A stretch of DNA of 64,000 nt from a virus. Position numbers and translations under genes: made by a program. The DNA is taken from the IMG/VR virus record IMGVR_UViG_3300009431_000004; one strand, given 5' to 3'. The notes under the pieces are model-generated. The model saw only the letters and a list, made by a program, of their open reading frames with translations, searched no databases and was not told where the DNA came from. Positions 5,458 to 53,434 of the stretch are shown here, piece by piece. How positions within the stretch are numbered: position 1 is the stretch's first letter; every line of letters begins with the position of its first letter.

Positions 5458-5488
5458 TCACCTTTGTCCTAAAATAGAGGAAAAACCG
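5458..5488 (-). promoter_or_regulatory. Putative late promoter motif, site A
   Basis: Minus strand CGGTT-TTTCCT-CTAT-TTTAGGACAAAGG-TGA. Confidence 0.6.
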
Positions 5489-5514
5489 ACCTAACTGACC
5501 GCCCCTTGATTCGT

Positions 5515-5560
5515 CAGTGGTTTTGCCTTCCAAACTTCTTGGAAGAACCAGCAACCACTG
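5515..5560. repeat. Nested inverted repeat/hairpin in the divergent intergenic region
   Basis: CAGTGGTT(5515-5522)...AACCACTG(5553-5560) enclosing CTTCCAA(5527-5533)-ACTTC-TTGGAAG(5539-5545). Confidence 0.6.
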
Positions 5561-5692
5561 GTTTTCAAAGAACGTATTAGACATCATACCGCTGCCCTAG
5601 ACGACCTTGCGAATATTTCCCTATTCAGGGGGCTTAGAGCCGAAACTGGCGAGTTGAGTACATGAGAGGAGAATTTCCAAGGAGGCCAAACG

Positions 5693-6571
5693 ATGAAGAC
5701 CTTGAAGCTGATGCTCATTTTGGCCATCACGGCCATGGCGCTGGGATGCGGAGCCGACGGCCCGAATCCCGAGCTGATTACGTGGAATCCTGACCAGTTC
5801 TCGACGCTGGACTACGTGGACTCGCAGGTACGGTGCTGCGTCCACCCCGAGGGGGATGAGCAGCTCTACTGCCTCTACCCGTCAGACACCCCGGCAAGCG
5901 GGTTCACGGAGCTGCGTACAATCCATTTCGACGCCGAGGGCAACGGGTATTCGGGTGCGAATGACTTGAAGGAGGTCTGTCCCGAAATCTGCAACCCCGG
6001 AAGTGCCGGTGGGGCCAAGTGCGAGAAGTTCCCCATCATCGGCCCGGACGGCACCATCGTACCGCCGAGGCTGGAAGTGGTGGAATGCCCCGGAGTCGCG
6101 GCAGGGAAGACCCTCATCGGTGAACCGTGGCCGGAAGACAGGCTGTGCTATTGGGATACGGAACTCGAATTTACATGCGCCTTCGATTCCCCGCTGAATG
6201 TGGCTGACCCTGACCTGTGCCTCCCCTTGATGTGCGCGGGCGACCCGGACAGCCCGAATCTCAAGTGCCAGATGGCGGGGTGTGTCCCGCCCGAAACGAC
6301 TTATGAGGACTGCGACAAAACACTATTCGCCGTGTACTACGCTGGCCCCTTTGAAGGTGGCGTGATTCTCACGGCACCCCAATATGGTTACTGCGAAGGG
6401 AAGGTCTACAGTGACTTCTTCATCCCGGCGGAAGGAAGTGAACCCGGATGCCCCGTTCTTGGGACATGCAATGCCCTCGGTACGGTGTGTCAGGGGACCG
6501 GAACCGAACGGCCCGACCTGACTTTCGCAGACCGGACGGACCAAGAACAGGCCGCGCCCCTTGCCAATTAG
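5693..6571 (+). CDS. Cys-rich lipoprotein (292 aa), moron-like
   Basis: AAGGAGG RBS at 5679-5685. Signal peptide MKTLKLMLILAITAMALG-C with lipobox; 18 further Cys. Only plus-strand gene; its stop overlaps the stop of the convergent tailspike gene. Confidence 0.85.
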   Translation: MKTLKLMLILAITAMALGCGADGPNPELITWNPDQFSTLDYVDSQVRCCVHPEGDEQLYCLYPSDTPASGFTELRTIHFDAEGNGYSGANDLKEVCPEICNPGSAGGAKCEKFPIIGPDGTIVPPRLEVVECPGVAAGKTLIGEPWPEDRLCYWDTELEFTCAFDSPLNVADPDLCLPLMCAGDPDSPNLKCQMAGCVPPETTYEDCDKTLFAVYYAGPFEGGVILTAPQYGYCEGKVYSDFFIPAEGSEPGCPVLGTCNALGTVCQGTGTERPDLTFADRTDQEQAAPLAN

Positions 6572-9500
6572 TTGTCATTGCCCGGATATGCCGCCCCACC
6601 ACCTGCCGGTACAAGGCCGCCCCAGATATTGGCACACCTGTTACCAATAACAGGAGTGACAAGCGGCCCCAGCTCCGGGTCGGCTGGCGTGCCAGCGCCC
6701 GTATTGGTGATGTTGGCACACCTGTTGCCCATCACCGTGCAGCCTGTAGCTCCGGGGAGGTCAATGTCATCGTCCGCCGCGTTCCCATTGACCGTCGTGT
6801 TGGGGCCAACCGTGATTTTTCCGCCAGTTCCGCCGCTCGCCCGCACTTTGTTGTCTCCGACCGTACAGCCGGTGCCAGTGGTGAGGTCCCCCTCCAAGAT
6901 GTTGTTCCCGACAACCGTGTTGAAGTTCCCGAGAGTCATGTTGCCCGTGGTCAGGGTGTTGCCAGAGACAGTCCCCGCGTCGCCTTCGGTGATGTTGCCG
7001 CCTGTGACCTCATTCCCCGTAATCGTATTGAAGTCACCAGCCGTGATGGCCCCGGCCTTGACCTTGTTCCCCGTAACGGTGGTGTAGTTGTTCGTGGTGA
7101 TATTTCCCACAGTCACTTCGTTATCGGACACCTTGCAGTTGGCACCATTCGCCGTAATGTCCTTGCCGACCCGGTTGCCGGTGACTGAGGTGTCAGCGGC
7201 CACTATCACTTCCTCGGTCACGTTGTTGCCCACGACCGTACAAGTGTCCCCGGCAAGCTGGATGCCGTTTTCGGCCCCTATGCCCCACTCCCCGCGAATC
7301 CGGTTCCCAGTGACGGCCAGTAGGTCTGCCGTGGCGTAGCCCTGCAAACCTTCGACCACGTTGTTGTCCGCGATGACGGAGTTGATCCCGTTGCGACCTT
7401 GCGCCAAAGTCACATCCCCGATGGTCATCTTGCCGCCAACATAGTTCCCTGACACCACGCAGGCTTCCGTCGCAATGGTGTTACTCGTGCAAATCGAGAA
7501 ATCGCTGGTGCTGTGGTTATCCGAAGCCGTGCAACCCCCGCCGAGGATGTTGATATTCTCCGCTCGGTTCCCGTTGACGGTGGTAAAGCTGTCGTTGACG
7601 GTGATGTCGCCGCCCCCGACCGGCAGGGAGTTCCCCAGCACCTTGTTGTAGTGGAGGGTGCTGACGTTGACGGTCAGATTGCCGCTGACGGTGTTGTTGG
7701 CGAGGATGTTCTGCCCGCCAGTCACGGCTACGTTCCCACCGACGGCATTGTCCACAACACGGCAATCGTCGATTTCGGTCCCGCCCACCCCGATGGTGAG
7801 GTCCGTGGTGATGAAATTCCCTTCAACCGTGCATTCACTCCCCCTGATGGCCATGGTGGTCAGGCACGAGTTCCCACTGACAAGGACCCCCGTCTCGTTG
7901 ACCTGAAGCACCCCAAGGTCGTTGTCCCGGCATTCAGTACCCGCAGAACCCGAGACACCAGTGGCAATCATCAAGCCCGTAGGAGCGTTGTTTCGGTGGA
8001 CCCGTGCGTCGAGTGATTCCACCATCATGGTATTGCCCGAGTTGGCGATGATTTGGTCCGTGTCCCCAGTCACGACCATGATTTCCCGGTCGCCTACCCC
8101 TCCTCCACTTATTGTGATGGTGTTTCCTTCGGCTCGGCATCTCGTGGTGTTGATGAAGTTCAGGCCGCGCTTTTCGGGGTAGATGGCAGCGACCCCTGTG
8201 TGGACCAAGAGAAGGTTATTGTCCAGAACCGAACAGTCCTCACAATCAATGAGGTTCACCCCGAGGTCTTGTGTGGACTGGATGGCGTTCCCAGAGAAGA
8301 CATTGTGCTGGGCTTCCACCCGGATTCCGTTCCTGAATCGGAGGATGGAGTTGTCTGATACCACATTGTCCGGGTTAAAAGTCGGCTGCGTTGCGGCCAT
8401 GCCCCAAACAATGCCGCCGGTTTCCGGGTGGCCCGCCTGCATCCCGCCGGGGGTCGAGTCCTGTACAAACCTGTTACCGGAGATGACACACCGGACAAAC
8501 ATACTGTACGGGTTCTGTGGGAAGCCATACAACCCGAAGTCCAGCAAAGCCTCCCCGTGGTTGTTCGTGATGCGGGAGTCCACGAGGCTGCCTGTGGTGA
8601 CATAGACCGCAGAGTCCACGGAGAAGAATCCTTGAGCTGGACCCGTGACCCTGTTGTCGTCCAGAATGACCCGGTTACAGGTAGGCCCGGTGTTGGTGAA
8701 CACTGGCCTGACTGGCGTTGCCTTGTCCCTGTCCGGGCCGGGGTCTGCGACAGTACACTCGAAATTAACCCCTCGGAAAACGATGTCGTCATGCCCATTG
8801 AGGTCGATGAGTGCGCTATCCGGTTCACCCCACCGAACCTTGCACGCAGTCGTCCAATTTACCCGAGGATTGCTCGTCACCATGATGCCGTCAGACTGAA
8901 TCTGGATGGGGACACGGGTATCGTCCTCGTCCGTGTACCCGACGACTTTTATGTGGACGTGACGACCGGGGTTGCCCGATTCGGGGGTCTGAATCTCACT
9001 CGCGTAGGCAATAGCGTCTGCGAGGTTGTCGAAATGTGGTGTGTGAGGTTCCAGCCCTTCGACCATGCCCACGTAGATGTCCACCCGCTGGTCGATGTCT
9101 TCGAGCGGGTAGCGCATGTCGATGACGGTCCCGAAGGCCGTCCCGACTCCCGTAATGTCCACCCGGTACATGAGGATGGTGCCGGGGGTCACGACAGGAA
9201 TGACGGGAGAGATGGCCCATTCGTGGCAGTCCCCCGGCAGGTCGTTCTCTTCCAGATAGAGGTAGTAGGTGTCATCCACCGCCGGGAGGGACACGACGCC
9301 CGCCGGGAGCGTGATGCGTTTCCCCTCGAAGATGATGGTGTACTCGGAGTAGGGGATGTCCACGGTCGCGCCGAAGACAGCCGAGCCGAGGTCCAGCTCG
9401 CCGCCTTCGAGGAGCCACGAGGAGAACAGGTCGTCGAGCAGCTCCGTCTGGGAGTTGCCCAGCGTGTTCCGGGGCGTGACCAAGACGGACCCGTCGAGCT

Positions 9501-12039
9501 GGTCCGTGACGTGCGCGTCCGCGAAGCGAAGGGCCGCGCCGCGCTTTGCTTGTCCGTAGGTCGTGTCCTGCTGGTAGTCGGTGCCGAATCGACCATTCGT
9601 CGCATGGACCGGGAGCTGAACGCTGCGCCGCAGGACCGCGACGTGCGTGCCAGCGGTGATGGCCAGAGAAGCCCCGTCCAGCCCTCCGCCCCAGATGTTG
9701 CGGAGGCGGGTCGTTCCGGCATCGTTCACGGCCCCGTAGTAGCCCCACGTCGTGGCGCGAACCACGGTGTCCTCGTAGACCGCCTCCCCGTTGGGCGTCG
9801 TTCCTTCCAGAATCTCGATGAAGCCGGTCTGCGGAAGCTGGTCCGCGACCTCCCCGGTGAGGACGATTTCGAGAGGGGCAATCGTCGGGTCAGGGACGCT
9901 GACGGATTCGAGGGTCTGGGCTTCCAGCGGAACGTAGCAGCGTTCACCGTAGACATCCTGCCCGTCTGTCTGCGTATCCCCCGTGGCACAGGCCGCTTCC
10001 CCTCCGGTGTAGTTATCGACGCCGGTCGCTCGCGGTGCGGTCCCGAGCTGGCCCTCCTCCCTCGAATAGGGGACGCACGAGCAGAAGATGACCAGTTCAC
10101 CACGGGGGTTGTCGGAGGCCGTGAACACACCCGCGACCGTCGGCCACAGGTCACTGCCTTCCTTGGGGGCTTCCGAGCAACGAATGAGGCCGTTGGCGTA
10201 GTCGATTTCAACCCATTGCTCGGACAGGCTGTAGGTACTGGGGTTCAGGACCACCTCGTTGGAGTCCACCGGGCGGTCGAAGTCCGGGATGATGGCCCCG
10301 GAAATGGGGTGCAGCTTGGCCGGGAACAGGACCATGCGGAACCCGAGGTCGTACAGGTTTCCGGGGTCCGCGTTGCTGTTCGATGCCCCCTCGTCAGAGG
10401 AGCCGGTGTCGAAGATGGCCCGGTCGGGAAGGTTCGGCCCGAGGCCGGGGAGGTCGTTCTTGAGGCTGGCCTTGACCCAGTTGGGGTCGATGAGGACGGT
10501 CAGCCGGGCAGAGTCCACCTTGTCGTAGTCGAAGTGGTCCCCGGTCCAGAGCGACGAGATGGAGTCGTGGACCGTTATCTTGAGGTTGATTCCGTCGCCC
10601 GCCGCGATGCCGATTTGTTCCAGATTGAACGCAAGGGACGGTCCCCAGAAGGCCCGCCCCGACACCGGGTCGTACTCGTCGATGCGCCGGACCACGTAGA
10701 GGTCAATCCCAAAAACCTTGTCAACGACCTCGAACCACCCGAGGAGGGACTCCAACGGAGCCTGCCAGCCCGAAGCCACATCGACGTTCAGTTGGCCGTC
10801 CTGCTTCACATCCACTTGGGTAATGTGGACGATGCTGCCAATCCATCGGCCTGCCGTGCCACCAAGCTCGTCAATCCTGATGCCCATCCGGGCCGGACCC
10901 CAATCCACAACGGCGGGGTCGCCCACTTCGCCACAGAGACGGCCCGTGGTGGTGAACGAGGGCTTCGGAACCGGGAGCTGCGGCATCTGGATGTAGTCGT
11001 CGTCGGCAGCCTTGGTGCCGTCGGCGGGGACGGGGATGCCATCCTCGAAGAAGGGATTGGCCGTCCACTCGTGGTAGGGGTACTGGTTGTCCGCGTTGAG
11101 CGACCGCTCCGGCGGGATGACCACGAAGGTCTTGGACTCCGTGGGGTTGCCCGAGTCCGGCACTGCGAGGCACCGGGTGGCCTTCGGCTCAAGGAACATG
11201 ATTTGCCGACAACAATGCTCTTGTCCGGGGACGAGTGCAGGGAACTCGAAGTAGTCACGGGGTGGTTTGGCGGGGTCGAGCGTGACGGTGTTGCCCGTGA
11301 TGTCGGTGACGCGGAAGATTTCCTGCTTCGAGTGGTCCGTGAGAGGAACGATGTTGACGAATCCACCTGCGCTGGGGTTGACATACCCGTCACCCAACCC
11401 GCCGTCACCAGCGATGGCAGGACCGGCCAGTGCGCCTTCCTCGCCCGTCTGGGTGAACACGACGTACAGTCCGCAGGGGAAGCGAGCCTCCCAGTCGGAA
11501 CCGTCGAACCCGTAGTAATCGGGGAAAACGTAAGGGATGACAGGCAGCGGCGGACCCGGAGGGGAGGCAATGCTGTACGCCTCCGAGGGGCAGATAATCA
11601 TGCGTAGCCCGGTGGCCGGGACGTTATCGAAAAGCACCCATTGGATATTCGTGTGCCAGTTCTTGAGGGTCGGGCCGACGACAGCGAAGGAGATGGGATG
11701 GCCCAGCAGGGAGCCGCCCTTGGAGCCGAAGCGGTTGGTCCCGTGCGCGTAAGGGGCGAAGTTGATTTCCTGCATCCCGAGACGCCCGAGCATGTACGGG
11801 ACCGTCTGGACTGCGTTGGGGCCGAGGGACTGCTGGTCATCCTCGGTGGCGATGGGGAAACCACCCCACTGTCCAGCCCATGAGCCACCGAGGCCCTGCG
11901 TCACGAGGGCCGCCTGAGCCACCTTCCCGGTGGGGACGGTCGTGAGCCGGGACAACTTCTCTTGCCATGGCTCGCGGCCTGATTGCGTCGTGCTGGTCAG
12001 CCGGTTGGCTCCCAACGTCTCGTTCGGGTCTTCAGGCAT
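6568..12039 (-). CDS. Tailspike/receptor-binding protein with C-terminal right-handed beta-helix (1823 aa)
   Basis: After FDNLADAIAY the C-terminal ~800 aa carry many (C/T)xVxGNx beta-helix turns (pectin-lyase-like/NosD-type). GGAG RBS. Confidence 0.8.
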   Translation of the reverse strand: MPEDPNETLGANRLTSTTQSGREPWQEKLSRLTTVPTGKVAQAALVTQGLGGSWAGQWGGFPIATEDDQQSLGPNAVQTVPYMLGRLGMQEINFAPYAHGTNRFGSKGGSLLGHPISFAVVGPTLKNWHTNIQWVLFDNVPATGLRMIICPSEAYSIASPPGPPLPVIPYVFPDYYGFDGSDWEARFPCGLYVVFTQTGEEGALAGPAIAGDGGLGDGYVNPSAGGFVNIVPLTDHSKQEIFRVTDITGNTVTLDPAKPPRDYFEFPALVPGQEHCCRQIMFLEPKATRCLAVPDSGNPTESKTFVVIPPERSLNADNQYPYHEWTANPFFEDGIPVPADGTKAADDDYIQMPQLPVPKPSFTTTGRLCGEVGDPAVVDWGPARMGIRIDELGGTAGRWIGSIVHITQVDVKQDGQLNVDVASGWQAPLESLLGWFEVVDKVFGIDLYVVRRIDEYDPVSGRAFWGPSLAFNLEQIGIAAGDGINLKITVHDSISSLWTGDHFDYDKVDSARLTVLIDPNWVKASLKNDLPGLGPNLPDRAIFDTGSSDEGASNSNADPGNLYDLGFRMVLFPAKLHPISGAIIPDFDRPVDSNEVVLNPSTYSLSEQWVEIDYANGLIRCSEAPKEGSDLWPTVAGVFTASDNPRGELVIFCSCVPYSREEGQLGTAPRATGVDNYTGGEAACATGDTQTDGQDVYGERCYVPLEAQTLESVSVPDPTIAPLEIVLTGEVADQLPQTGFIEILEGTTPNGEAVYEDTVVRATTWGYYGAVNDAGTTRLRNIWGGGLDGASLAITAGTHVAVLRRSVQLPVHATNGRFGTDYQQDTTYGQAKRGAALRFADAHVTDQLDGSVLVTPRNTLGNSQTELLDDLFSSWLLEGGELDLGSAVFGATVDIPYSEYTIIFEGKRITLPAGVVSLPAVDDTYYLYLEENDLPGDCHEWAISPVIPVVTPGTILMYRVDITGVGTAFGTVIDMRYPLEDIDQRVDIYVGMVEGLEPHTPHFDNLADAIAYASEIQTPESGNPGRHVHIKVVGYTDEDDTRVPIQIQSDGIMVTSNPRVNWTTACKVRWGEPDSALIDLNGHDDIVFRGVNFECTVADPGPDRDKATPVRPVFTNTGPTCNRVILDDNRVTGPAQGFFSVDSAVYVTTGSLVDSRITNNHGEALLDFGLYGFPQNPYSMFVRCVISGNRFVQDSTPGGMQAGHPETGGIVWGMAATQPTFNPDNVVSDNSILRFRNGIRVEAQHNVFSGNAIQSTQDLGVNLIDCEDCSVLDNNLLLVHTGVAAIYPEKRGLNFINTTRCRAEGNTITISGGGVGDREIMVVTGDTDQIIANSGNTMMVESLDARVHRNNAPTGLMIATGVSGSAGTECRDNDLGVLQVNETGVLVSGNSCLTTMAIRGSECTVEGNFITTDLTIGVGGTEIDDCRVVDNAVGGNVAVTGGQNILANNTVSGNLTVNVSTLHYNKVLGNSLPVGGGDITVNDSFTTVNGNRAENINILGGGCTASDNHSTSDFSICTSNTIATEACVVSGNYVGGKMTIGDVTLAQGRNGINSVIADNNVVEGLQGYATADLLAVTGNRIRGEWGIGAENGIQLAGDTCTVVGNNVTEEVIVAADTSVTGNRVGKDITANGANCKVSDNEVTVGNITTNNYTTVTGNKVKAGAITAGDFNTITGNEVTGGNITEGDAGTVSGNTLTTGNMTLGNFNTVVGNNILEGDLTTGTGCTVGDNKVRASGGTGGKITVGPNTTVNGNAADDDIDLPGATGCTVMGNRCANITNTGAGTPADPELGPLVTPVIGNRCANIWGGLVPAGGGAAYPGNDN

Positions 12040-12055
12040 CTTTCTCTCCTGCCGT

Positions 12056-12086
12056 CTAATTCAGCAGATTTATAGTCTCTCCACCG
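12056..12086 (-). promoter_or_regulatory. Putative late promoter motif, site B
   Basis: CGGTG-GAGAGA-CTAT-AAATCTGCTGAAT-TAG. Confidence 0.65.
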
Positions 12087-12087
12087 A

Positions 12088-15000
12088 CTACGTGGTCACT
12101 GGCGGGGTCGGCAATGCCGCCTTCTCGCTCTCCCGGATGATTTGGATTCCCGAAATGCCCCGCACATTGTACGGACTGATACCGGGGCCGGTTGTCCCGG
12201 TCCAAGCGGGGTCGATGCGCTCGTGCCAGAAGTCGAAGTTCGTGGACTGCGAGGTAGCCCCGTCCTTCATGATGACCTTCACCAGAATCGGGACCGTTCC
12301 GTCGGCACTGGCTTGAAGGGTCGCCGCAGGTCCGACGTTCGCCCGGACCTGACAGTAGACTTGACCCGTGTGTTGGTCGTAGTAGTCGTAGGTGTACTCG
12401 CCCAACACCCTGCATCCCGCGCCGTCTCGCACCGGGTCTTGCTTGCTCGGGCCGCCGCCATCGTTGCGCCCGAGGTCCATCCACGTCGTCAGCCCCGGCA
12501 CCTTGACCATGATGGCGATGCCGTGAGTTGGATGGCCCGGACCCGGAGCTGCGTAGCCGAACTCGTTGTACTTCAGGCCGTCGATGCGGAAGGTCACGAG
12601 GGCGGACCCCACCACGTCCTCGTCTTCAGTGGCGTTCGAGAAGGCCACGTCGAAGCAGCGGACGTATTCCTTGTCCCCGGTCGTGGTGGAGTAATCCGAT
12701 TGCGTGATGCCCTCACCGGCACCGGGCGCGTACCCGGCGGTGTAGTCCTCCTTGGGGTACATCAGGCGGCCAGCCGAGGGGGCCGCGTAGATAGCCCAGT
12801 CGGAAAGCGGCGGATTCCTGTCGGGCATCCCCGCCACTTGAAGCTCGTCAAAGGTGTCCAGCACATCAACGGTTTCATGACGGTCCAGTTGCACCCACGA
12901 AGCCGTGTCCCATGGGGCAACCACGGTATGCCCGGCCCGCACGGGGACCTCGATGAGGCCCGCAGCCCAAGCCGCCATGCCCGGTCCACGGAGCTGGTCG
13001 CCACCTGCGGCGGCGTTTACCCCGGCGAAGTCCCTCGTGTAGCGGTACACCTCGTCGAGGAATCTCTCCTCTGTGTCCTTGCCCGCCGTCGCCAGCGAAG
13101 CGTAGGCCGGAGACACAGCGCCCGTGGTGAAGTTACCGTAAGGAGCCGTTCCACCACCTGCGGTGGTGAAAGCGGTCGAGTGGAACAGAACCTCGCGTCC
13201 GTCGGTGGCGTCGAGCGCCTGCCCCGCCCCCGCTCCGCCTGCGGCCCAAGTGGGCTGGACCGTCTCCTGCCACGTCGCATGGGCCAGAGGGCGGCGCACG
13301 AAGGCACGGGGCCGTGCATTGATGGTGAAGGCCGGGTAGCCGTCGTCCCCGTCCGGGACGATGGTTTCCCCACCTGCGAGCTGGATGGTCAGGTTGTCCC
13401 CGAACAGCGGCCCGACGACTTCGCTGAAAGCTCCCAGATGCGTGTAGGGGAACTCAATGCGCTGGGGTCGCACACCTCGGGCGTCCGTGAAGCCGGGCGT
13501 CACCGTCATGGTGGGGACTCCGGCCACGTCGTCGTAAGAGAAATGACCGAGGTACAGGAGTGCCGGGTCCGGGCTGCTCACCTGCGCGGGTGGCACGTCC
13601 CCCGTGGACATGGGGTTGTCGTCCGTCCTGTAAACCTCGGTCCATGGGTCTGCTACCCCGCCACCTGTCACAACAGCAGTCAGGGTGTCGATACTGAAGG
13701 CGGGGGCAGCGGTGACAGCATCGTTCGGGATGAAGTAAGTCACGCCGGAGCAGGCCATGAACTCGCCGCCCGTCCCCGCGTCTGCCCACATCCATGTGTG
13801 GGTCGTGAAAACGATGTCGTCCTGATGGTCCTCGTCGGCCACGTAGATGGACGACCTGTTCAGGAAGTACCCGAGAGACTTGTAGCCGTACTGGGGAGCC
13901 ATGTGGGGGTTGACCCCGGTGCCGTCGTCCTCGTTGACGAGGTTCCCGTAGTCCTCGATGGCACCCGCGTTCGGGTAGGCCCCGTACAGTTCGTATCCGT
14001 CGGTCGCGTCCCACGGCATGATGCCGTCACGGACGAACTTCTCGAAGTCCTCTTCCTGCTTGAAGTGGAAGAACCAGTAGGTCCCCTTGGCCCCCTTGGT
14101 GTCCGAGTCCAGCACGTAGAACGAGTGCCGGTACTTGGCCAGTTGCCAGAGCCATGCGTCCTGAAGGAAGGGCATGTTGAAGGGTGCTTCGTCCACCCCT
14201 TCCTGAACTGTCCCTCCTGCGTCTGCCGGACCTTCGACGTTGATGTCCGTCCCCCATGTGTAGCCGCCTGCATTTCGCAGCACCCAGACTCCGGGTTCGA
14301 TTTCTTCCACCATGGAGTCATCGCCGTTATCGAACGGCTCCTCTACGAAGAAGTACCGGGCCGTCTCCTTGGTCGTCAGGGGGTCGATGCCCCTCGGGGT
14401 GAACCGGATGCCGGTCCGCCGGGAGTAAGAGGCCATGACCGGGAGCCGGTACGAGAAGAAGTTGCTCGTTTCGAGGAAGGTCAACCCGATGGCGTAAACG
14501 CCGTCCACCATGCCAGCGTGGATGGTGTAGTCCTCGTAGGCGTTCGGCCCTGCCCCCAGAATCGGGATGCCGTAGGGCAGCTTGGGGGGTTCCCCACAGA
14601 TGGCTTCTGCCACGGTCCCCAGCCGGACTTGGCCCGGTGCCGGGATTTCCGAGTTGGGGTGGCGGGGAGCGCCCACGTTGCCGTCGCCGTCAAAGTCGTT
14701 CCACGGAGGAGGGAGTTGCTCCGGCGCGATAGTGGAGACTCCCGTGAAGATTTCATCGAGGTTGTACTGACCCGTTGCCTGACCGGGATAGGCCATGGGG
14801 TCGTAGTTGCCGTTCTCGTCCGTCCCTACCGCGAAAATACCTCCGGGGTCGCCGTCACAGACGAGGGGAGCGCCGATGGACTCATCCCAGCGAATACAGT
14901 CACCACCCGTGATGCCTTGGCCCAGCAGGATGGCGGCCACCACGCGGTCCAGCAGGTCCTCTGCGAGAAAGTCCGCCACGTCGCCATTGTGAGGCCAGCG

Positions 15001-15816
15001 GATGAGGGCCAGCACACCCCGGTCCGCCGGGAAGATGTTGCCAACCATGCAGGCGGGGAAGTGGTCCGGTCCCGGTCCGACGCTGCCCGGAGGCTGAAGA
15101 GGGAGCGCCGCAGTCGTCCGCCGCACAGCGTCGCCTACATCGGTGAAAGCTCCGGCGTAGGCTTCGCCTTGGCCTCCACCCCGAACCGTGCTGACATTCC
15201 AGACTTCGAGGTCCCTGCTCTCAAGGCTGCCGCCTCGCAAGTCCTCCCCGGCAGCCGGTTCGGTATCCAGAGTGTCGTACTCCGGCTCCTCTTGCCAGAT
15301 GCCGTTGAAGTTGAGAGTCGGGGCAGTCGCCGCGAAGAAGTAGGGGTACACATCGTCCGGGTTGTTCATGGCGGGAGGGTACTCGTAGGGGTCCTCCGAA
15401 ACTCCGGGGACCAAGTTACGCTCTACGAGGTTCGAGTCCCCCAAGTCCAGCATCCCCCAGACTGGGACGGTACTCCACAGCCGGTCAAGCCGCAGGATGC
15501 CGTTCATGGTCGGCTGAGGAGGCATCCCCGAGGTCAGCCCGTCAAGGCTCTGCTCCACGTTCCGGGAGCCGAGCAGGAGGTCCGGGAAAGGAGAGACACT
15601 GATGGCCGAGGCCGGGTGAGCGCCCGACGGGTCGTGGATGTGAGCGTCCAGTCCGGCCAGCCCACCGGCCCCGCCTTCGGGCTTGGGGCCGTCGTACTCG
15701 GGATACCCGATGGTCGGGCTGCCGGGGACTACGCCACCGAGGCTGTAAGGGCTTTCTGCCGGGACCGTCTTACCGGAGCCGGTTCTGATGCTACCGGGGT
15801 CTACCTTACGAGGCAT
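12088..15816 (-). CDS. Large acidic virion structural protein (1242 aa)
   Basis: Long high-GC3 ORF with GGGAG RBS. AHIHDPSGAHPASAI motif seen in phage fibre proteins; DFDGDG Ca-binding-like motif. Confidence 0.7.
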   Translation of the reverse strand: MPRKVDPGSIRTGSGKTVPAESPYSLGGVVPGSPTIGYPEYDGPKPEGGAGGLAGLDAHIHDPSGAHPASAISVSPFPDLLLGSRNVEQSLDGLTSGMPPQPTMNGILRLDRLWSTVPVWGMLDLGDSNLVERNLVPGVSEDPYEYPPAMNNPDDVYPYFFAATAPTLNFNGIWQEEPEYDTLDTEPAAGEDLRGGSLESRDLEVWNVSTVRGGGQGEAYAGAFTDVGDAVRRTTAALPLQPPGSVGPGPDHFPACMVGNIFPADRGVLALIRWPHNGDVADFLAEDLLDRVVAAILLGQGITGGDCIRWDESIGAPLVCDGDPGGIFAVGTDENGNYDPMAYPGQATGQYNLDEIFTGVSTIAPEQLPPPWNDFDGDGNVGAPRHPNSEIPAPGQVRLGTVAEAICGEPPKLPYGIPILGAGPNAYEDYTIHAGMVDGVYAIGLTFLETSNFFSYRLPVMASYSRRTGIRFTPRGIDPLTTKETARYFFVEEPFDNGDDSMVEEIEPGVWVLRNAGGYTWGTDINVEGPADAGGTVQEGVDEAPFNMPFLQDAWLWQLAKYRHSFYVLDSDTKGAKGTYWFFHFKQEEDFEKFVRDGIMPWDATDGYELYGAYPNAGAIEDYGNLVNEDDGTGVNPHMAPQYGYKSLGYFLNRSSIYVADEDHQDDIVFTTHTWMWADAGTGGEFMACSGVTYFIPNDAVTAAPAFSIDTLTAVVTGGGVADPWTEVYRTDDNPMSTGDVPPAQVSSPDPALLYLGHFSYDDVAGVPTMTVTPGFTDARGVRPQRIEFPYTHLGAFSEVVGPLFGDNLTIQLAGGETIVPDGDDGYPAFTINARPRAFVRRPLAHATWQETVQPTWAAGGAGAGQALDATDGREVLFHSTAFTTAGGGTAPYGNFTTGAVSPAYASLATAGKDTEERFLDEVYRYTRDFAGVNAAAGGDQLRGPGMAAWAAGLIEVPVRAGHTVVAPWDTASWVQLDRHETVDVLDTFDELQVAGMPDRNPPLSDWAIYAAPSAGRLMYPKEDYTAGYAPGAGEGITQSDYSTTTGDKEYVRCFDVAFSNATEDEDVVGSALVTFRIDGLKYNEFGYAAPGPGHPTHGIAIMVKVPGLTTWMDLGRNDGGGPSKQDPVRDGAGCRVLGEYTYDYYDQHTGQVYCQVRANVGPAATLQASADGTVPILVKVIMKDGATSQSTNFDFWHERIDPAWTGTTGPGISPYNVRGISGIQIIRESEKAALPTPPVTT

Positions 15817-15827
15817 CTCAGTCTCCC

Positions 15828-19439: not shown

Positions 19440-19464
19440 GCGTCGCGTCCTCGTAGCCTTGCCG

Positions 19465-20289
19465 TCATGTGCGCCTCACGTCCGGGTCCACCCCTCTCCG
19501 CTCCCACTGGGGGATGAGCGGAGAATAGATGCCCTCCATGGCCCTCCACAGAGTGCTGTTCAGGCACACCGTGGAAACCTTGGTCCCGGTTTGGCCCTCG
19601 AATTGGGCCAGCCGAGTGGCCAGAGACTTCGGCAAGAAGCCTGTGCGCCTGCTCCATCCGACCACTTCCACCCATCCCGAGGGGACCAGTTCCCACAGCG
19701 GTCTGAGCAACCGAAACGACGGCACCCAGTCGAGTCCGACCACACTGGGGCGGTACTCGTATGGGACGCCCTCCCGAAGAAGGACTCGGGCGAAGTTCGC
19801 CTCCATCAAGGAACGGCAAGCGTGCGGTATGTCCGGTCGCCTGCCTCCTCTGGCACGCCCACCGTGCGTCCGGTAGCGTCTGGGGGAGAACCCGTCCGTC
19901 GATTCCCTCCGCACCTTGGTCTTTCCCGTACAACCCCGGCTGATGGCGTCCCGATGTTCATCCGTCAGGGACTTGCCCGTCCACGGGGCGGACAGCTTCA
20001 TTCTCTCCGACTGGGCCTTCCTCTCTTGGGCGGACCCCCACCGCTTGCTCGCGGCTGCGGCTTGCTTCCTCCGGCAATCCTGTGAACGGCTCCTGCTGGC
20101 CGGTGCATCCGTCAAGGCTCCGGGGAACCGAGCAAGGTAGTTGGCCGGAGAGATGTCGTGTGCGGCTCTCAGGTGCCTCCCAAGCTGCTTCCTCTCGGCC
20201 CCGCAGATGCGGCAGGACACCACGGACGGAGCCTGACCAACCACGTTACTGCCGATACCCTCTCGGGCGTTGGACGCGGAAGCCTGCAT
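19465..20289 (-). CDS. Zn-finger + NUMOD3-like + degenerate PD-(D/E)xK endonuclease (274 aa)
   Basis: ATG 20289 in TGATG overlap. CRICG...LGRHLRAAH Ros/MucR-like finger; GKSLTDEHRDAIS; RSLMEANFARVL...YEYRP...VPSFRL...EVVGW. Confidence 0.65.
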   Translation of the reverse strand: MQASASNAREGIGSNVVGQAPSVVSCRICGAERKQLGRHLRAAHDISPANYLARFPGALTDAPASRSRSQDCRRKQAAAASKRWGSAQERKAQSERMKLSAPWTGKSLTDEHRDAISRGCTGKTKVRRESTDGFSPRRYRTHGGRARGGRRPDIPHACRSLMEANFARVLLREGVPYEYRPSVVGLDWVPSFRLLRPLWELVPSGWVEVVGWSRRTGFLPKSLATRLAQFEGQTGTKVSTVCLNSTLWRAMEGIYSPLIPQWERRGVDPDVRRT

Positions 20290-20963
20290 CAGAAGGTGAG
20301 CCTCCACGTTATGCTGAGGACAGCGGTTGACGGTTTCGTGATGACCGAGAAAGTCAGGTAGTTGGCCAGAATGTCGTGTCCGGTCACGTCGATGGTCGGG
20401 TCGTAGGTGGGAGTGGGGGTTCCCGGCCCGTTGTCGATGGGATTCCGGGTGGCCGGGGAGAGGGAGTAGGTGTTCATCAGGCCCATCTCATTGAGCGGCC
20501 CGACTGCTTCGCCTTCCCCGAAGGTGGTGGTGAAGTCCACGATGTTCGTGGGGTACGCCACGGCCACGCCATCGGCGTTGCGGAACTGCGTGGAGGAGAA
20601 CGCCTTGCGGCCAATCTCCACTACGAGGCGACGCTGCTCCCGCTGCGGGGCATCCGGGGAGAGCAGGTTGCCCGGCGCTCCGGTCCCGACCCCGAGCATG
20701 ATGAGGCCGTTGTTGCGGCCCGCCGTGGGCGTCTCGCTGTCCTTGAACAGCCGGGCAGCCAAGATGCCCGCATCGAGAGTGATGATGTTGTCCAGCTCGC
20801 GCTCGTCCAGCACTTCGCCGGTCCGGGCGTCAATCATCTCGATGAACAGTTGCCCCTTCTTGGGTCCGCAGAGGAAGCTCTCAGGGAACACCCCAAGGTC
20901 GAGACAGGCCGCCTGCATGGCATCCCCGCCCATCTTTACACGGTCACGGAAGACTTGGGACAT
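20289..20963 (-). CDS. Tail-collar/baseplate fibre-base protein (224 aa)
   Basis: NIITLDAG, LGVGTG, EIGRK, FTTTFGEGEAVG, EMGL and K...LSITWRLTF match the common myovirus fibre-collar family. ATG 20963 follows GGAGAGG. Confidence 0.75.
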   Translation of the reverse strand: MSQVFRDRVKMGGDAMQAACLDLGVFPESFLCGPKKGQLFIEMIDARTGEVLDERELDNIITLDAGILAARLFKDSETPTAGRNNGLIMLGVGTGAPGNLLSPDAPQREQRRLVVEIGRKAFSSTQFRNADGVAVAYPTNIVDFTTTFGEGEAVGPLNEMGLMNTYSLSPATRNPIDNGPGTPTPTYDPTIDVTGHDILANYLTFSVITKPSTAVLSITWRLTF

Positions 20964-20989
20964 ATCCCTCTCCAAATAAACCGCAGTTC

Positions 20990-21020
20990 CTACTTGTGCG
21001 CCGAGATAGGCGCTCTATTG
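20990..21020 (-). promoter_or_regulatory. Putative late promoter motif, site C
   Basis: CAATA-GAGCGC-CTAT-CTCGGCGCACAAG-TAG. Confidence 0.6.
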
Positions 21021-21022
21021 AC

Positions 21023-29262: not shown

Positions 29263-29293
29263 CCATAGAACCGGACATATAGGCCAATCATCG
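29263..29293 (-). promoter_or_regulatory. Putative late promoter motif, site D
   Basis: CGATG-ATTGGC-CTAT-ATGTCCGGTTCTA-TGG, overlapping the upstream stop codon. Confidence 0.65.
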
Positions 29294-34430: not shown

Positions 34431-34431
34431 G

Positions 34432-35634: not shown

Positions 35635-36422
35635 GCCTTGACCTTCCTACGCTGTGCCGCTCGCCGGGCTTCGGTCCAAGGAATCCCCTTACGGGCGGCG
35701 CTCATCCTCCGGCAAGTGGCTTCACTGCGCTTGAGGCCCGTTATCTTTTGACGCTGTTCCTCTGACCAACGTCGCCCACGATTGGCCTCCCCAATCTTGC
35801 GTTTCGTCTCGGGGCTTTGGGTCGAACCCGTCCTCGCTGCAATCGCGGCCAAGGGGGGCTGACCTTTCTTTGCATCCGAAATCGCCTGTTTATGGGCCGC
35901 TGACATTGACCCTTTTGGCACCCCTCTCTGGGCTTCAGCAACTCTCTCCCGATGTCTTTGAGTCGGGACATACCCCGAGTCTAGTGCCGCCTTCACCATC
36001 TTTGGTTGGAAAGTCGGGTCCGCCACCAGCCTCCGACGAGTCGCATCCCCAATCTTTGCCCGAGCTTCAGCGTTTGGGGTATAGCCTTTGAAGCTGCCCG
36101 CAGTCGGGAGAGTATTCATGCCCTTCTGACCGCACGCATCGCAAGCATCCATATAGTGCTGTTCACGGACCGCCAACTGGTCCGGGTCGGGGACCTCCTC
36201 CAATATCCGAAATGTAAAGGAATCCCCGCCGTAAAGGTCCCACGCCTTCTGAAGTCTGGGGCATCCTCTCCCCGCCCTTAGCTCCTTCACATGGTCCCGC
36301 CAGCGCCCTCGGATTCGACGGGATTGCCCAACGTACACCTGCCCGGAAGCAGCACAGGTAATCTGGTAGACCCCCATCTCGGGGAGGTCATAGGGCCAAG
36401 CCAGTTGAAAATCCTTCGCCAT
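35631..36422 (-). CDS. GIY-YIG homing endonuclease with NUMOD3 repeats (263 aa)
   Basis: GVYQI...YVGQS...RW...REQ...GMN catalytic pattern; SPETKRKIG and SAAHKQAIS repeats; ATGA overlap with the gp25-like start. Confidence 0.9.
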   Translation of the reverse strand: MAKDFQLAWPYDLPEMGVYQITCAASGQVYVGQSRRIRGRWRDHVKELRAGRGCPRLQKAWDLYGGDSFTFRILEEVPDPDQLAVREQHYMDACDACGQKGMNTLPTAGSFKGYTPNAEARAKIGDATRRRLVADPTFQPKMVKAALDSGYVPTQRHRERVAEAQRGVPKGSMSAAHKQAISDAKKGQPPLAAIAARTGSTQSPETKRKIGEANRGRRWSEEQRQKITGLKRSEATCRRMSAARKGIPWTEARRAAQRRKVKA

Positions 36423-36440: not shown

Positions 36441-36471
36441 TCATTGAATGGACCATATAGGCTAGACACCG
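36441..36471 (-). promoter_or_regulatory. Putative late promoter motif, site E
   Basis: CGGTG-TCTAGC-CTAT-ATGGTCCATTCAA-TGA. Confidence 0.65.
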
Positions 36472-36477
36472 CCCGGC

Positions 36478-37368: not shown

Positions 37369-37376
37369 ACTACCTC

Positions 37377-40510: not shown

Positions 40511-43500
40511 CGATGCTCTCCGTGGCTTCCTCCAACAACAGGAGCCGTTCTCTCTCCGCCAGCCGCTCCGGCAGCTCCTCGTCGAACCGCTTGATGCCCG
40601 CCAGCGTCCCCAGAATCTTGTGAACCCTGTAGGCCAGCCAGACGTACCGGATGGGCCGGAAACGGTCCGACTCGTCCAGCACGAGGTCAATGCGCTCGGG
40701 CAGCACCGGGCGAACGTCACTGCCCCCACCTATGTCATCGGTATAGGCCGTGTAGGGCGTGCCCCCCGGCGCTGAGAGCTTCATCGCTACGTTCTGGTAG
40801 GGCGGGTCGGCGTGGGTCAGGCGGTCGAGCCGCAGGTCGAAAATCCAGAAGCGCCGGTCCAGCAGGGAGAGGCAACTCCGGTTATTCATGAACGGGACAG
40901 TCCCCAGCTCCCCAATGATTTCCTCGATGAAAGCGTTGCTCAGGACGCCCATGCCGGACTCCGGGTCCGTGACGATGCCGAGGTCCGAGATGTGTTCCTT
41001 GTCTTGGAACTCGTAGTAGGAGCCGTACTTCCAGCCCCGCAACAGCGCCCGCAGCATCTCGACGAGGGACAGCATCCGCTCGCGCATGGTCAGCACAAGG
41101 TCGATGGCCTCGTCCGAGAACAGGCCGGACGGGCGGATGACTTTGTAGGAGAAGGGGCGGATGGAGTAGTCATTGCCCTTGTAGGTCTGTGTCACCGGGT
41201 CACGCTTGGCCGTCGGGCGCAGGTCCATCTGGCCCTCGAAGGGGGCTATTGCACCAGTAAGGCCCGAATCCGAGATGGTTGGGTAGATGGCGTACTCCCG
41301 GTTCGGGGTCGTCCCGCTTGCAAACGTCACCCAGTTGGTGTCGTTGATGCCACCCGCGTAGGTCGAGATGGGGTCCACCTCCAAGTGCGGAGTCGCACCT
41401 CCGATGACCTTCAGGACGCGATAGAAGCCCCGGTTGTCGTCCAGCTCGCTGGGCTTGCCCGCCCAGTCGTGCGGAGGTGCAGGCCACCTGCTTGTGACGC
41501 CGAGGTCCCCCAGAGGACGCGCCCCTCTGTCCGGGACAGCGGGCAGGCCGCCATGCTGGGGCAGAGTGCCTGCGGGGTCGATGACCACGATGTCCCCGAC
41601 CCGGACGCCCACGGTCCCGAAGGTCTGGCTCCCGGAGGTCAGTTGGTCGTCGTACATCTTGTTGACCACGGTTTCGTAGTCCCCACCGGGTGGAATTTCC
41701 TCGACGTAGCCCCCCTCCTCGGTGTCCCAGTCGGCGTCGGAGCGGTAGACTTCCCGGTCGCTGATGAGTTCGAGGAGCTGCTCGTTGGACTGCTCGTGTG
41801 GGACTGGCGGCTGCCGGAGGTAAATCTCGAAGCGCATCCCGCCGAGAGCAGTCAGCTCGGCAGGTGTGCGCCGCGTGATGCCGGGCATGGCCAGCTTGAG
41901 GGTGACGGAATCCTCGACCCCCGTAATCTCGACTTCCTCGATGAGCGTTCCGTCATCGTCGAGGAGCCGGAAGCGGTCCCCCGCGTTGATGTTCACGTCC
42001 GGGTCATCGAAGGGGCCGAGGTTGGTCCCGTCGTAGCTGAATCCGTCGTTCCACACATCCGGGGCGAGCGGGGCCGCCGGATTGGAGACGTTCCAGTTCA
42101 TGACGAAGGAGGCCGTCACGACACCCCTCTGGCGGACGTTGGTCGAGTAGTCGTTGATGCGACCACGACGCATCTCGTAAGCGAACCGGAGGGCGCGAAA
42201 GTGGTCCCCGGCTTCTTCCATGATTTCGTGCCAGCGCCGGACGCTCCGCACGGTGTACTGGACCTCCTCTCGGGCGTCGAGGGTCGTGGCGGCCCCACCG
42301 GGGTACTGTGTCCCCGCGTACTCCAATTCGTTACGGAACCAGCTCTCTTTCTCCCAGTCGGGGACAGCAGCAAGGGGGTCCGCGATGGGGTGGGTTCTGT
42401 CCACCACCAGAGCGTCAAGGACCGACAAGTTGGCCACGGACCGGGGGAAGGACGGCTCGAAGAAGATGCCACCTTGCGCCCAGTAGCCGGGAACCACAGG
42501 CCCGGCGAGGTCGGCTACCGCGAGTTGCGTTCCCGGCAGAAGACAGTCCACCAAGGTCGGGCCGGGCGGTGCGGCGGTGTTGAGCGTCTCCCATTGGGGA
42601 TGGGGGACATTCATGATGTCCAATGTATCCACGACGTTGTGGTAGATGGGCGTCGTCAGGTCTGCCTCAAAATTGTTGCTCCCCACCGGGTTGTTCTCCC
42701 GGAGTCTCAGCGGGGTGCCTGCTCCTGTGCTAATGCCAGCAGGCCCCGTGAACAGGAGGTCTGCGCCGCCGGTCTGAATCGGCGGGCAGAGCGTGACGTG
42801 GCGGAACCCGCGTTCTGCGAGGGGGTCCTCGACCCCGACGCAGTTGTCGTCGGGGAGGCCGTACTCGGAGCCGCCCATGGCCACGGGAAGATAGGTCATC
42901 CCGGACACCTGCAACGCCCGGTTTCCGATAAGAGCGTCGAACTCGGCGTCAGTCGCAATCAGGGTGTTCAGTGCGTCCCTGTAGGTCGCGGGGTCGAGAG
43001 TGAATACTGCCTCCTCTCCCGGAGAGACGAACGAGGTGTAGGCCGCACTGATGAGTCCATAACGGAAATCAGCAACGACCCCCGAGGCCAAGGCGGAGAG
43101 GTCACGAATCAGATAAACACGCCCAGCCCCCACTGCCGGGAAGGCCGAATACTTGCCATTTACCAGCGGAGCGCCCGTGTACTTGGTCTGGGGCAGGAAC
43201 GTAATGGTCAACTCATGTGTCGCCGGGTCGAAGTCCACCACCCTCGGGAATTCCAGAGGGCACCAGCCATTACCCGCTCCGGCAACTGTGGTTGGGGACA
43301 CCTCACGACGGACCGGAGCGCCCGCGTTTGGTTCGACCACATGCCGGATGAGATACGTCCCCAGCTTGGTACTGGCCGGGTGCGCGGCATCCACCGAGGA
43401 GTTGACAACGCACAGGTCGCCCTTCTGGATGAGCGCCAATCCCCCGAGGGCGGGCGGAGTCTCTATCACGAGCCGGTTGTCCGAAGTTCGCCGTTCGTTG

Positions 43501-51974: not shown

Positions 51975-51977
51975 CCG

Positions 51978-52586
51978 TTACACCACCACGCAAACCGTCG
52001 GCCCGGACATCGGAACCGGCGGAACTGTCGGCACTCCTACAACTGCACCTGCCCCAGTACCCTGTAACAATAGGCTGGCTATTCCAATGCCCAGCCCGGT
52101 TGCCATCATGCTGAGGGCTGGCCCCGGCCCCAGAGTCGCGGTCAAGGTCTGCATTAACATACCGACGAGGGAGGCCGAATTGGCCACCGTAATCTTCGAG
52201 ACATCCGCCCCCACCCCGACGCCCGCCGCCGGTCCCACGTACTGGGCCGATGCGTTGAAGGCGGTCGAGATGCCGGTTGAGATGGCGAGGGCGAGGCTCT
52301 GCGCCAGAGGACCCACCATCCCGGCCCCGGCCAGCCCGGCCTGCACCAGTCCCGGATTGGGTGGCACGATGACCTTCGAGGCCACGGGGTTCACAGCTCC
52401 TCCGCCGGACACTCCGGTTGCCAACCCGGTCAAGCCGAGGTTCTGCGGCTGCATGATTCCCCACTGGGAGACTCCGTTTGCAACCCCGAGCGCCATCCGG
52501 TCGTAGTTCACCCCGCCGAAGGAGTGGATGCCCGAAGTCCGCGCCAAGGAGAGCGAGGAGTAGAGGATGCCGGGGTTCAGTGCCAT
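51978..52586 (-). CDS. Gly/Ala-rich protein with three internal repeats (202 aa); candidate spike-tip protein
   Basis: ATG 52586 after GAGGAG; repeats MALGVANGV / LALAISTGI / MATGLGIGI; first structural gene after the spike. Confidence 0.65.
   Translation of the reverse strand: MALNPGILYSSLSLARTSGIHSFGGVNYDRMALGVANGVSQWGIMQPQNLGLTGLATGVSGGGAVNPVASKVIVPPNPGLVQAGLAGAGMVGPLAQSLALAISTGISTAFNASAQYVGPAAGVGVGADVSKITVANSASLVGMLMQTLTATLGPGPALSMMATGLGIGIASLLLQGTGAGAVVGVPTVPPVPMSGPTVCVVV
52054..52084 (-). promoter_or_regulatory. Putative late promoter motif embedded in coding sequence, site G
   Basis: GAATA-GCCAGC-CTAT-TGTTACAGGGTAC-TGG, 80 nt upstream of the 3823-aa gene; coincides with rare codons ATA, CTA, TTG, TTA. 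Confidence 0.5.
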
Positions 52587-52593
52587 ATTCTCC

Positions 52594-53379
52594 TCAAGGC
52601 CCAACGATGTGGGACTCGACGACAAGTCGGCACAACCGGAAGAACTCTTGCTGGTCCATGTCCCATTTCATTTGCTGCACCCGCTTGTCCACCCACTGGA
52701 TGTTCCCTTCGACGTACCCCTTTCTGCTGTCGATTCGGTCTAAAGAAGCGGTCCCCTTCCGCGCCCCGACGGGCGGGAAGTGAATGGGAAGTCCGGTTAA
52801 GGCACACTTTCCGCCCTGCTTCTTGAACAAGTCCCACACCTCTCGTAAGGACACACCGACCTCCAACCCACGAGCTTGGGCGTTGTTCAGGATGTTGGAC
52901 CAGAAGGTCTTAGGTATCTTGCCCACACCCTGCCAATTATGCGCCCTCTGCCCCCTCCGGCGACGCCCCATGGCCGAGGCGGATTCTTTGGCGAGGCAGC
53001 CACAACTTCGAGTCGTCCCATTAGAGAGGTTGGATAAAGACACCACTTTCCGTTTCCCGCAATCACAACGACAGTCCCACCGAGTCCCCCCTGACTGCGT
53101 GCTTCTCTGATTACGACCCTCTACCACGAGCCGCCCGAATCTCTTTCCCACCATCTCTGCTTCAGGAAACGCTCTCCAAGAAGCCCCCCTCAGACACCCA
53201 CAGCTTTGCGTGTGGCCGGACCGGACCTTGGTGAGAACTTTGATGACCGAAGCCCCACAGGAGCATTGAAACGTCGCCTGTGTCCGGCCATTCTTGTGGG
53301 GCGGGGCGGCCCCCCGCAGAGTAAGCTCGCCAAACTGCTGCCCAATCAGCTCCTCAACGCTAATTTTCGGCGCACCCAT
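52594..53379 (-). CDS. HNH-type homing-endonuclease-like protein (261 aa)
   Basis: Two GxxFGxLxx...CxCG...SCGC domains, then KCALTG...SLDRIDSRKGYVEGNIQWV; AT-richer than neighbours. Confidence 0.8.
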   Translation of the reverse strand: MGAPKISVEELIGQQFGELTLRGAAPPHKNGRTQATFQCSCGASVIKVLTKVRSGHTQSCGCLRGASWRAFPEAEMVGKRFGRLVVEGRNQRSTQSGGTRWDCRCDCGKRKVVSLSNLSNGTTRSCGCLAKESASAMGRRRRGQRAHNWQGVGKIPKTFWSNILNNAQARGLEVGVSLREVWDLFKKQGGKCALTGLPIHFPPVGARKGTASLDRIDSRKGYVEGNIQWVDKRVQQMKWDMDQQEFFRLCRLVVESHIVGP

Positions 53380-53403
53380 TGTGACCCTTTCACTGTGTTG
53401 TCT

Positions 53404-53434
53404 TGTTAGAGGGCGTCCCATAAACTAACTACCG
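53404..53434 (-). promoter_or_regulatory. Putative late promoter motif, site F (variant)
   Basis: CGGTA-GTTAGT-TTAT-GGGACGCCCTCTA-ACA; the downstream triplet deviates. Confidence 0.5.

Follow-up and report, generated by a model that had tools for sequence, protein, structure and literature searches.

What is the short motif that recurs in the gaps between the virion genes of an uncultured huge phage, and what would read it? The question is raised by IMG/VR virus record IMGVR_UViG_3300009431_000004, of which the whole analyzed stretch of 64,000 nucleotides is referred to here as the window. A preliminary description of this DNA reported six minus-strand copies of a fixed-spacing motif, likened its geometry to that of sigma-54 (-24/-12) promoters, and attributed it to a dedicated late-transcription system. 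Aligned over 38 sites, the motif reads yCGnTAG-N5-CTATA-N12-TAG(G/A)R, that is, an upstream box 1, a CTATA core, and a downstream box 3. We propose that it is very likely a promoter and, with less certainty, that it probably serves as a clade-specific late promoter for virion genes, read by the host RNA polymerase together with a phage-encoded factor. Both proposals are drawn from comparison of sequences.

The motif is a real signal, gene-oriented and intergenic. All six copies are present on the minus strand where they had been placed (Table 1), and the statement that every minus-strand gap longer than 40 nt carries one is correct for the gene layout, with site 53404 counting only if the open reading frame (ORF) behind it starts at its second ATG. 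The form first given, CRRTR-N6-YTAT-N13-TRR, holds for sites 12056, 20990, 29263, and 36441 and fails for 5458, which reads CGGTT and departs at position 5, and for 53404, which has ACA rather than TRR. This literal pattern has four matches in the window versus 0.04 expected from shuffles. It was fitted to the same six sites, however, and the count is therefore circular; for this reason we relied on matrices trained on other genomes.

The first matrix was trained only on 25 intergenic CTATA sites of G001, the complete sister genome behind L002 (435,804 bp, with direct terminal repeats). Among approximately 128,000 strand positions, its top four in the window are 12056 (18.4 bits), 29263, 36441, and 20990, and the weakest of the six sites is 5458 (8.7 bits). 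The second matrix combined 32 sites from G001 and from L001, L003, L005, L007, and L009, and contains no window sequence. With it, the six reported sites score 13.7-23.7 bits and take ranks 1-5 and 7, all intergenic and all on the minus strand; intergenic minus-strand positions make up only about 1% of window positions. The only other window matches of at least 12 bits (40746, 3113, and 33984) are coding and on the minus strand, and the plus strand holds a single match, at 8.0 bits. The training set includes orthologues of three of the six window sites and none of 12056, 5458, or 53404. Real coding sequence and the opposite strand served as the null for the matrix tests; mononucleotide block shuffles were dropped from that role because they generate TA-rich words that the real genome avoids. 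Enrichment upstream of genes relative to coding sequence, a comparison named in the preliminary description, is found with the matrices trained on relatives and with counts from G001.

The resemblance among the six sites could have arisen by chance, or because short gaps hold stop codons and ribosome-binding sites: the pattern was fitted to six short sequences, and gaps of this kind would be expected to contain stop-like triplets and purine runs. This explanation is effectively ruled out by the matrices from other genomes, which recover all six sites, and by the register association in G001, an independent genome. There, 16 of 25 promoter-context CTATA sites combine C at -11 with T at -8 (counted from the C of CTATA), versus 7 of 83 elsewhere (Fisher, P = 5e-8). 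Likewise, a TAG, TGA, or TAA triplet at N11-13 after CTATA is found in 13 of the 25 promoter-context sites versus 7 of the 83 others (P = 8e-6). The box 1 triplet, moreover, is not the stop codon of the upstream gene in at least four of the six window sites, and the motif is kept at orthologous gaps.

Conservation is clearest in the gap of site 36441, between the gene for a 296-aa protein and the gp25-like gene. Here the motif is present in about a dozen relatives, including G001 (353419), L001, L003, L007, L009, L055, L058, L061, L062, L066, and L051. Across these orthologues, CTATA is constant and the spacing fixed; box 1 reads CGGTGT, CGTTGT, CGGTTC, or CAGTTA, box 3 reads TGAGG, TAGGAGG, or TGGGAG, and the spacers are unrelated. 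Site 20990 has orthologues in L001 (23158, CAATAG..CTATC..TAGAAC) and in G001 (approximately 338.55 kb, CGGTAA..CTATG..TAGGGAAC), and site 29263 has orthologues in L001 (14892), L003 (14208), and G001 (approximately 347.29 kb, with a GTATA core). Relatives with orthologous sites share 45-78% identity in the baseplate J protein, and the additional loci share 52-69% in the 296-aa protein. For sites 12056, 53404, and 5458 the comparison covered G001 alone, which lacks counterparts and in which the adjoining genes differ or are absent. For example, the ORF behind site 53404 (52594-53421, minus strand) has no G001 homologue and no Pfam match, and it lies between the 808-aa and 215-aa genes, which adjoin each other in G001. 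The orthologous gp25 gap of L059 carries CGGTCA-N5-TTATG, similar to site 53404, and the TTATG form is not enriched genome-wide in that relative. G010, a 381-kb relative, lacks the CTATA form and shows no enrichment of TTATG, and its late signal may differ. The motif is also not enriched in the more distant genomes G002-G005 (baseplate identity of at most 41%); it belongs to one subclade.

The gap of site 36441 further contains a GIY-YIG/NUMOD3 homing-endonuclease gene of atypical codon usage, inserted on the minus strand between the promoter-like site and the gp25-like gene (Table 1). G001, L001, L003, and L007 are without this gene, and in them the motif stands 29-31 nt before the gp25-like gene; the endonuclease has therefore taken over the promoter-like site and the ribosome-binding site. 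Its stop codon overlaps the start of the next gene (ATGA).

The 38 aligned sites also refine the anatomy of the element. The information in box 1 resides in C, T, A, and G, and the GG doublet emphasized earlier is not among the conserved features. N5 often ends in GC, N12 is mostly C-rich, and two to three purines follow TAG. The distance from box 3 to CTATA is fixed (N12), while anywhere from 9 to 35 nt separate box 3 from the start codon; box 3 is therefore part of the signal and not of the ribosome-binding site, even though the two overlap in the most compact sites.

These short gaps also suggest a signal acting in RNA, such as a processing site or translational operator in polycistronic late transcripts. 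Co-directional genes only 47-60 nt apart flank most copies, the Shine-Dalgarno sequence is often touched or overlapped by box 3, and box 1 coincides with the upstream stop codon in 7 of 25 G001 sites. We nonetheless regard an RNA-level signal as quite unlikely. No common fold is apparent (z between -2.2 and +1.3 at five of the six window sites), and an Rfam search returned no family match to the sites. The fixed distance of box 3 to CTATA rather than to the start codon argues against it, as do copies that stand at the front of a unit preceded by a gene of opposite orientation. In a genome of 62% GC, TA-rich boxes held at set distances typically mark DNA that is recognized and melted. A related idea, that the three TA boxes provide stop codons in three frames, was dropped; the boxes include TGG, and the exact spacing and the C and G positions would be needless.

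Overall, the place of the motif among the promoters of its clade is best seen in G001, where k-mer enrichment in upstream regions recovered three promoter-like classes. Class i comprises a few canonical TTGAC(A)-N16/17-TATnnT promoters, one of them (TTGACT-N16-TATTGT) ahead of a sigma-like gene; TTGAC-N17-TAT is not above control in this genome (10 versus 13), and the sites that look real are a few that share a GTGCTTGACAA context. Class ii consists of approximately 50 copies of GG[GT]CTTAYYT-N13-AGAGTAGTCTAGG on both strands, 20-30 nt before small genes and with sigma-70-family spacing, and is probably a middle or early promoter class of the clade. Across L025-L046, with examples at G001 positions 98022, 191821, 230347, and 318683, the strict class ii copies have AGAGTAGTCTAGGTG as the second box and often form back-to-back divergent pairs. 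Class iii is the present motif, with approximately 25 copies, 24 of them on the minus strand, which is the gene strand, and it is the sole class in the giant-gene structural regions. Upstream regions of G001 contain 26 copies of CTATA versus 2.5 expected, and CNNTRRN5CTATA occurs 12 times in reverse and once in forward orientation (controls, 3 and 3). Several copies head minus-strand units behind a plus-strand gene. A scan of the window for class ii motifs and canonical sigma-70 promoters found neither, leaving the present motif as the only promoter-like one in 64 kb.

These comparisons support a dedicated, phage-specific transcription signal for virion genes, and this part of the earlier late-transcription proposal stands: the motif is the sole promoter-like element of a 64-kb module, is kept at orthologous gaps, and forms a distinct class in G001. 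The analogy to sigma-54 that accompanied it does not. Sigma-54 promoters have the form TGGCAC-N5-TTGCW, at -24/-12. Like them, the motif has two boxes at an invariant distance of about one helical turn; its GG-N10-AT register equals the sigma-54 inter-element distance, and the purine run after the T of box 3 would suit a start 12-14 nt past the core. Unlike them, it has no GG or GC doublets, for the GG positions hold G in 26 and 16 of 38 sites and the GC positions are an invariant A and T. The predicted start distance differs as well, as a start at box 3 would put the boxes 3-5 bp too far upstream of -24/-12, and the gaps of 47-57 nt are too small for enhancer-like repeats unless these lie within coding sequence. 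Searches for a protein that reads the motif covered five related genomes (G001-G005), or G001 alone, in place of the window's own whole genome. Sigma54_DBD (PF04552) had no match in G001-G005 and TIGR02395 none in G001, with positive controls and with room left for a copy in the host. A sigma-54-type promoter, served by a host or phage sigma-54-like factor and starting near the TAG box, is thus highly improbable, and the likeness comes down to an inter-box distance of about one helical turn.

How, then, would the motif be read? Under the reading that we favor, the multisubunit RNA polymerase of the host would be redirected by a phage-encoded specificity factor, as in T4 late or middle transcription. 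The CTATA core would act as a -10-like melting element, resembling the alpha-proteobacterial CTATAT and the opening five positions of many -10 elements, and the box 5 bp upstream would stand in for a -35 element. The switch from pyrimidines to purines at the TAG box could mark the start site or an early-transcribed contact. If CTATA is the -10 element, the start would lie approximately 7 nt downstream, placing box 1 at -23 to -18 and box 3 within the early transcript. If instead the start is the purine after the T of box 3, the two upstream boxes would fall at about -29 to -24 and -18 to -14; such a start would fit the pyrimidine(-1)/purine(+1) rule and the purine run, and its geometry matches no known sigma.

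T4 offers close comparisons. Its late promoters carry TATAAATA and are recognized by gp55, acting with gp33 and the gp45 clamp. The motif resembles them as a short TATA-containing element akin to the host -10 with no -35, the window sites having no TTGAC-like hexamer 16-18 bp upstream, and as an element present in many copies in very short gaps before virion genes (here baseplate and tail) of a large lytic myovirus. Similarly, a homing-endonuclease gene sits behind such a promoter, and site 12056 reads CTATAAAT, which is 7/8 of the T4 late octamer. Unlike the T4 late promoters, the motif has two further fixed boxes (CGnTAG 5 bp upstream and TAGR 12 bp downstream); the octamer TATAAATA is not conserved, only 12056 comes near it, and the positions after CTATA are unconserved. 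T4 middle promoters combine a MotA box with the sigma-70 -10 element, sigma being appropriated by AsiA and MotA. The present motif would likewise pair a host-type, -10-like core with a phage-specific upstream box that replaces the -35, and by this analogy small phage proteins that resemble sigma region 4 or act on it are plausible readers. The MotA box, however, is centered near -30, whereas the box here would lie at about -23 to -18. Finally, the core CTATA(T) equals the -10 hexamer of the Sinorhizobium meliloti sigma-70 consensus, CTTGAC-N17-CTATAT (PMC2873474). In contrast to such alpha-proteobacterial housekeeping promoters, no window site has a -35 element at 17 bp, and the last T of the hexamer is unconserved in the 38 sites.

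Several observations weigh against a host polymerase redirected to late genes. The upstream box lies 5 bp from the core, and an ordinary sigma region 4 therefore cannot reach it; sigma-70-type promoters require hexamers 16-18 bp apart and A(-11)/T(-7), an arrangement that the motif does not have. Box 3 has no counterpart in known sigma-70-type promoters. The position equivalent to -7 is T in only 14 of 38 sites, so that CTATA may not be a true -10 element. Conservation of box 1 is somewhat inflated, because 7 of 25 G001 sites (and 29263 among the six window sites) take this triplet from the stop codon of the upstream gene. Non-structural genes also follow some G001 copies, as in a unit that contains an exonuclease V/Dda-like helicase; the label "late" therefore rests mainly on the virion module. 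PHROG annotation of the genes behind the G001 sites gave almost no matches. It is conceivable, if doubtful, that the three boxes instead form a signal read by an initiation factor or polymerase of an undescribed kind, with the boxes at -29 to -24 and -18 to -14 and the start at the TAG box, a geometry like that of neither sigma-70 nor sigma-54; such a reader would drive all virion genes of a clade in which no late sigma or RNA polymerase is recognizable.

The search for RpoN, sigma factors, and RNA polymerase subunits, suggested for the contig in the preliminary description and applied here to the related genomes, returned no RpoN and no polymerase, and it did return a divergent sigma-like protein and two region-4 proteins in G001. 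No polymerase of the phage and several sigma-related genes both fit use of the host enzyme. A 390-aa protein (Table 1) is likely a divergent sigma factor, judging from its AlphaFold model (pLDDT 83.5). In the model, an N-terminal winged-helix-like domain precedes a C-terminal part that folds like sigma regions 2-4, and residues from approximately 140 to 382 align only to sigma factors in holoenzyme structures. Its top 50 Foldseek matches are almost all sigma chains of holoenzymes (probability up to 0.90, E 0.02-0.5), and VIA-align Z values of 8-9.6 are middling for a helical protein. This protein has separate sigma-2 and sigma-4 domains and therefore suits class ii better than a motif with 5-bp spacing. 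A 201-aa protein with tandem region-4 domains is, by its sequence, a candidate sigma-region-4 mimic or two-box DNA binder, and G001 also encodes a 172-aa protein of sigma region 4 only (241411-241929). Candidate readers of the motif are such a region-4-only protein or an unrecognizable mini-sigma. The T4 gp55 families phrog_234 and phrog_12791 (assigned from T4 gp55) had no match in G001-G005; the phrog_12791 control matched nothing, and such mini-sigmas diverge past detection. A 503-aa G001 ORF with a weak Sigma70_r2 match was set aside, as on reading it did not look like a sigma.

Alternatively, the promoter could be read by an unrecognized RNA polymerase of the phage itself, either a single-subunit T7-like enzyme, with CTATA at -5 to -1 and the upstream box at approximately -16 to -11, or a divergent two-barrel enzyme within a giant virion protein. 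Promoters of T7, SP6, and K11 (..CACTATAG..) have CTATA right before the start and an upstream edge approximately 17 nt off. The motif shares the CTATA block and conserved positions that reach approximately 17 nt upstream, and its 11-bp box spacing is unfit for sigma-70. Unlike those promoters, it has no conserved +1 G (about half of the 38 sites have C or T directly after CTATA, where any polymerase would start poorly) and carries an extra box 12 bp downstream. T7-type RNA polymerase (PF00940) had no match in the five related genomes, the control set being likewise without a match, and the beta and beta' subunits (PF00562 and PF00623) had none in the related genomes, with beta' searched in G001 only.

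The two-barrel variant draws on a 1685-aa virion protein (window 55851-60908, minus strand), in which an invariant QDVDGDFVFKPP block, shared with the G001 orthologue, includes DVDGD and recalls the DbDGD signature of two-barrel polymerases. It was the sole conserved match to a DFDGD-type motif in the hunt for a polymerase. A PDB sequence search with this protein returned no match, and the AlphaFold model of residues 480-900 (pLDDT 52) was too poor for a structure search. More than 600 huge-phage proteins share these residues at 55-79% identity, and some of them also contain an amidase, lysozyme, M23, or SLT domain; swapped cell-wall hydrolase domains of this kind therefore point to a tail lysin or hub protein. 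Virion polymerases, moreover, normally serve early rather than late genes. Overall, we consider a phage polymerase improbable and continue to favor the host enzyme with a phage-encoded factor.

Table 1. Coordinates of the motif sites, the extra candidate, and associated genes (window positions unless marked G001; bits from the 32-site matrix unless noted).
Feature	Position	Strand	Sequence or match	Core	Bits	Context
Site 5458	5458..5488	-	weak variant CGGTTT-ttcct-CTATT-N12-TGAAAGC		16.3	284-nt divergent gap before 276-aa gene (4578-5408)
Site 12056	12056..12086	-	CGGTGG-agaga-CTATA-N12-TAG	12071-12075	17.2	16 nt before ATG of 1823-aa gene (6568-12039)
Site 20990	20990..21020	-	CAATAG-agcgc-CTATC-N12-TAGGAAC	21005-21009	23.7	before 228-aa ORF (likely true start, ATG at 20963) and MucR-like gene
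Site 29263	29263..29293	-	CGATGA-ttggc-CTATA-N12-TGGAGG	29278-29282	23.1	before 646-aa gene (27290-29230); TGA of box 1 doubles as stop codon of upstream 454-aa gene
Site 36441	36441..36471	-	CGGTGT-ctagc-CTATA-N12-TGAGG	36456-36460	20.9	before GIY-YIG gene (35631-36422), then sheath-initiator and baseplate J genes
Site 53404	53404..53434	-	variant CGGTAG-ttagt-TTATG-N10-TAACAAG		13.7	overlaps 808-aa gene end; 24 nt before second ATG (53379) of ORF 52594-53421
Extra candidate	40723..40759	-	CCCTAC-acggc-CTATA-N9-TAGGTG		14.7-15.2 (both matrices)	within 3' end of 3823-aa gene, ~240 nt before next small ORF
Ros/MucR-type zinc-finger gene	19465-20307	-	Pfam 2.5e-06, barely above cut-off			downstream of site 20990
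Baseplate J-like gene	30912-34430	-	Pfam Baseplate_J 6.7e-15
Sheath-initiator (gp25-like) gene	34432-35634	-	Pfam Sheath_initiator 2.8e-06, 27.8 bits, under curated cut-off of 32.9 bits
201-aa protein, two tandem sigma-70 region-4 domains, no region 2	G001 31416-32021 (L026:11416-12021)	-	Pfam Sigma70_r4_2 1.7e-12, two stretches
390-aa sigma-like protein	G001 63738-64910 (L028:3738-4910)	+	weak TIGR02937 match			32 metagenomic homologues; no database name

The window itself is, by its gene content, a contractile-tail/baseplate virion module of an uncultured high-GC huge phage, an assignment that follows from its Baseplate J and sheath-initiator genes. Its GC content is approximately 63% overall (57-65% across 2-kb windows), and its roughly 25 genes, all on the minus strand, include giants of 3823, 2084, 1823, and 1685 aa. 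There are only six true intergenic gaps, and intergenic DNA totals approximately 1.3 kb. The database records nearest to the baseplate protein come from an uncultured phage of 485 kb (38% identity) and a Tunturiibacter jumbo phage of 309 kb (25%); its IMG/VR relatives share 34-78% identity, and several lie on contigs of 360-436 kb. The window is syntenic with G001 at 324.7-380 kb. Minus-strand genes at 3838-4698, 12088-15816, 30655-30912, and 63122-63997 have no tblastn match in the syntenic G001 region, and only the C-terminal part of the 1823-aa gene product, which has a weak beta-helix hit, matches G001. Together, these unmatched genes and the 1823-aa gene look like a variable tail-fiber or host-range region.

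Other features lie close to individual sites. The MucR-like protein encoded downstream of site 20990 is kept in G001 (337048-337857, 56% identity) and could be a regulator or a DNA-coating protein that favors TA-rich DNA. The low-GC divergent gap that holds site 5458 contains a 40-nt hairpin (5420-5495, minus strand; CCTCTATTTTAGGACA...TGTTCTAAAAAGAGG; -24 kcal/mol, z = -3.5) that overlaps the site; the hairpin is not a classic terminator on either strand. The extra candidate at 40723 is kept in L002 at 4432; it lies in coding sequence (YTAYTD), and protein constraint can therefore account for its conservation.

Huge phages are known almost solely from metagenomes, and their expression programs are uncharted. 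A literature search for a described equivalent of the motif in these phages found nothing relevant; the sequence of the element is new, while the kind of element is already known. If validated, a promoter class conserved across a clade would provide a handle for splitting 400-kb genomes into temporal units, and would aid the calling of gene starts and the detection of inserted mobile genes. It would also support the hunt for the missing regulator, for some factor must read this layout, which fits no known sigma. Should the reader be an ordinary mini-sigma, the motif would be a useful, unsurprising annotation. Should it be a sigma substitute of a new kind, the few known strategies by which phages re-program bacterial RNA polymerase would gain another.

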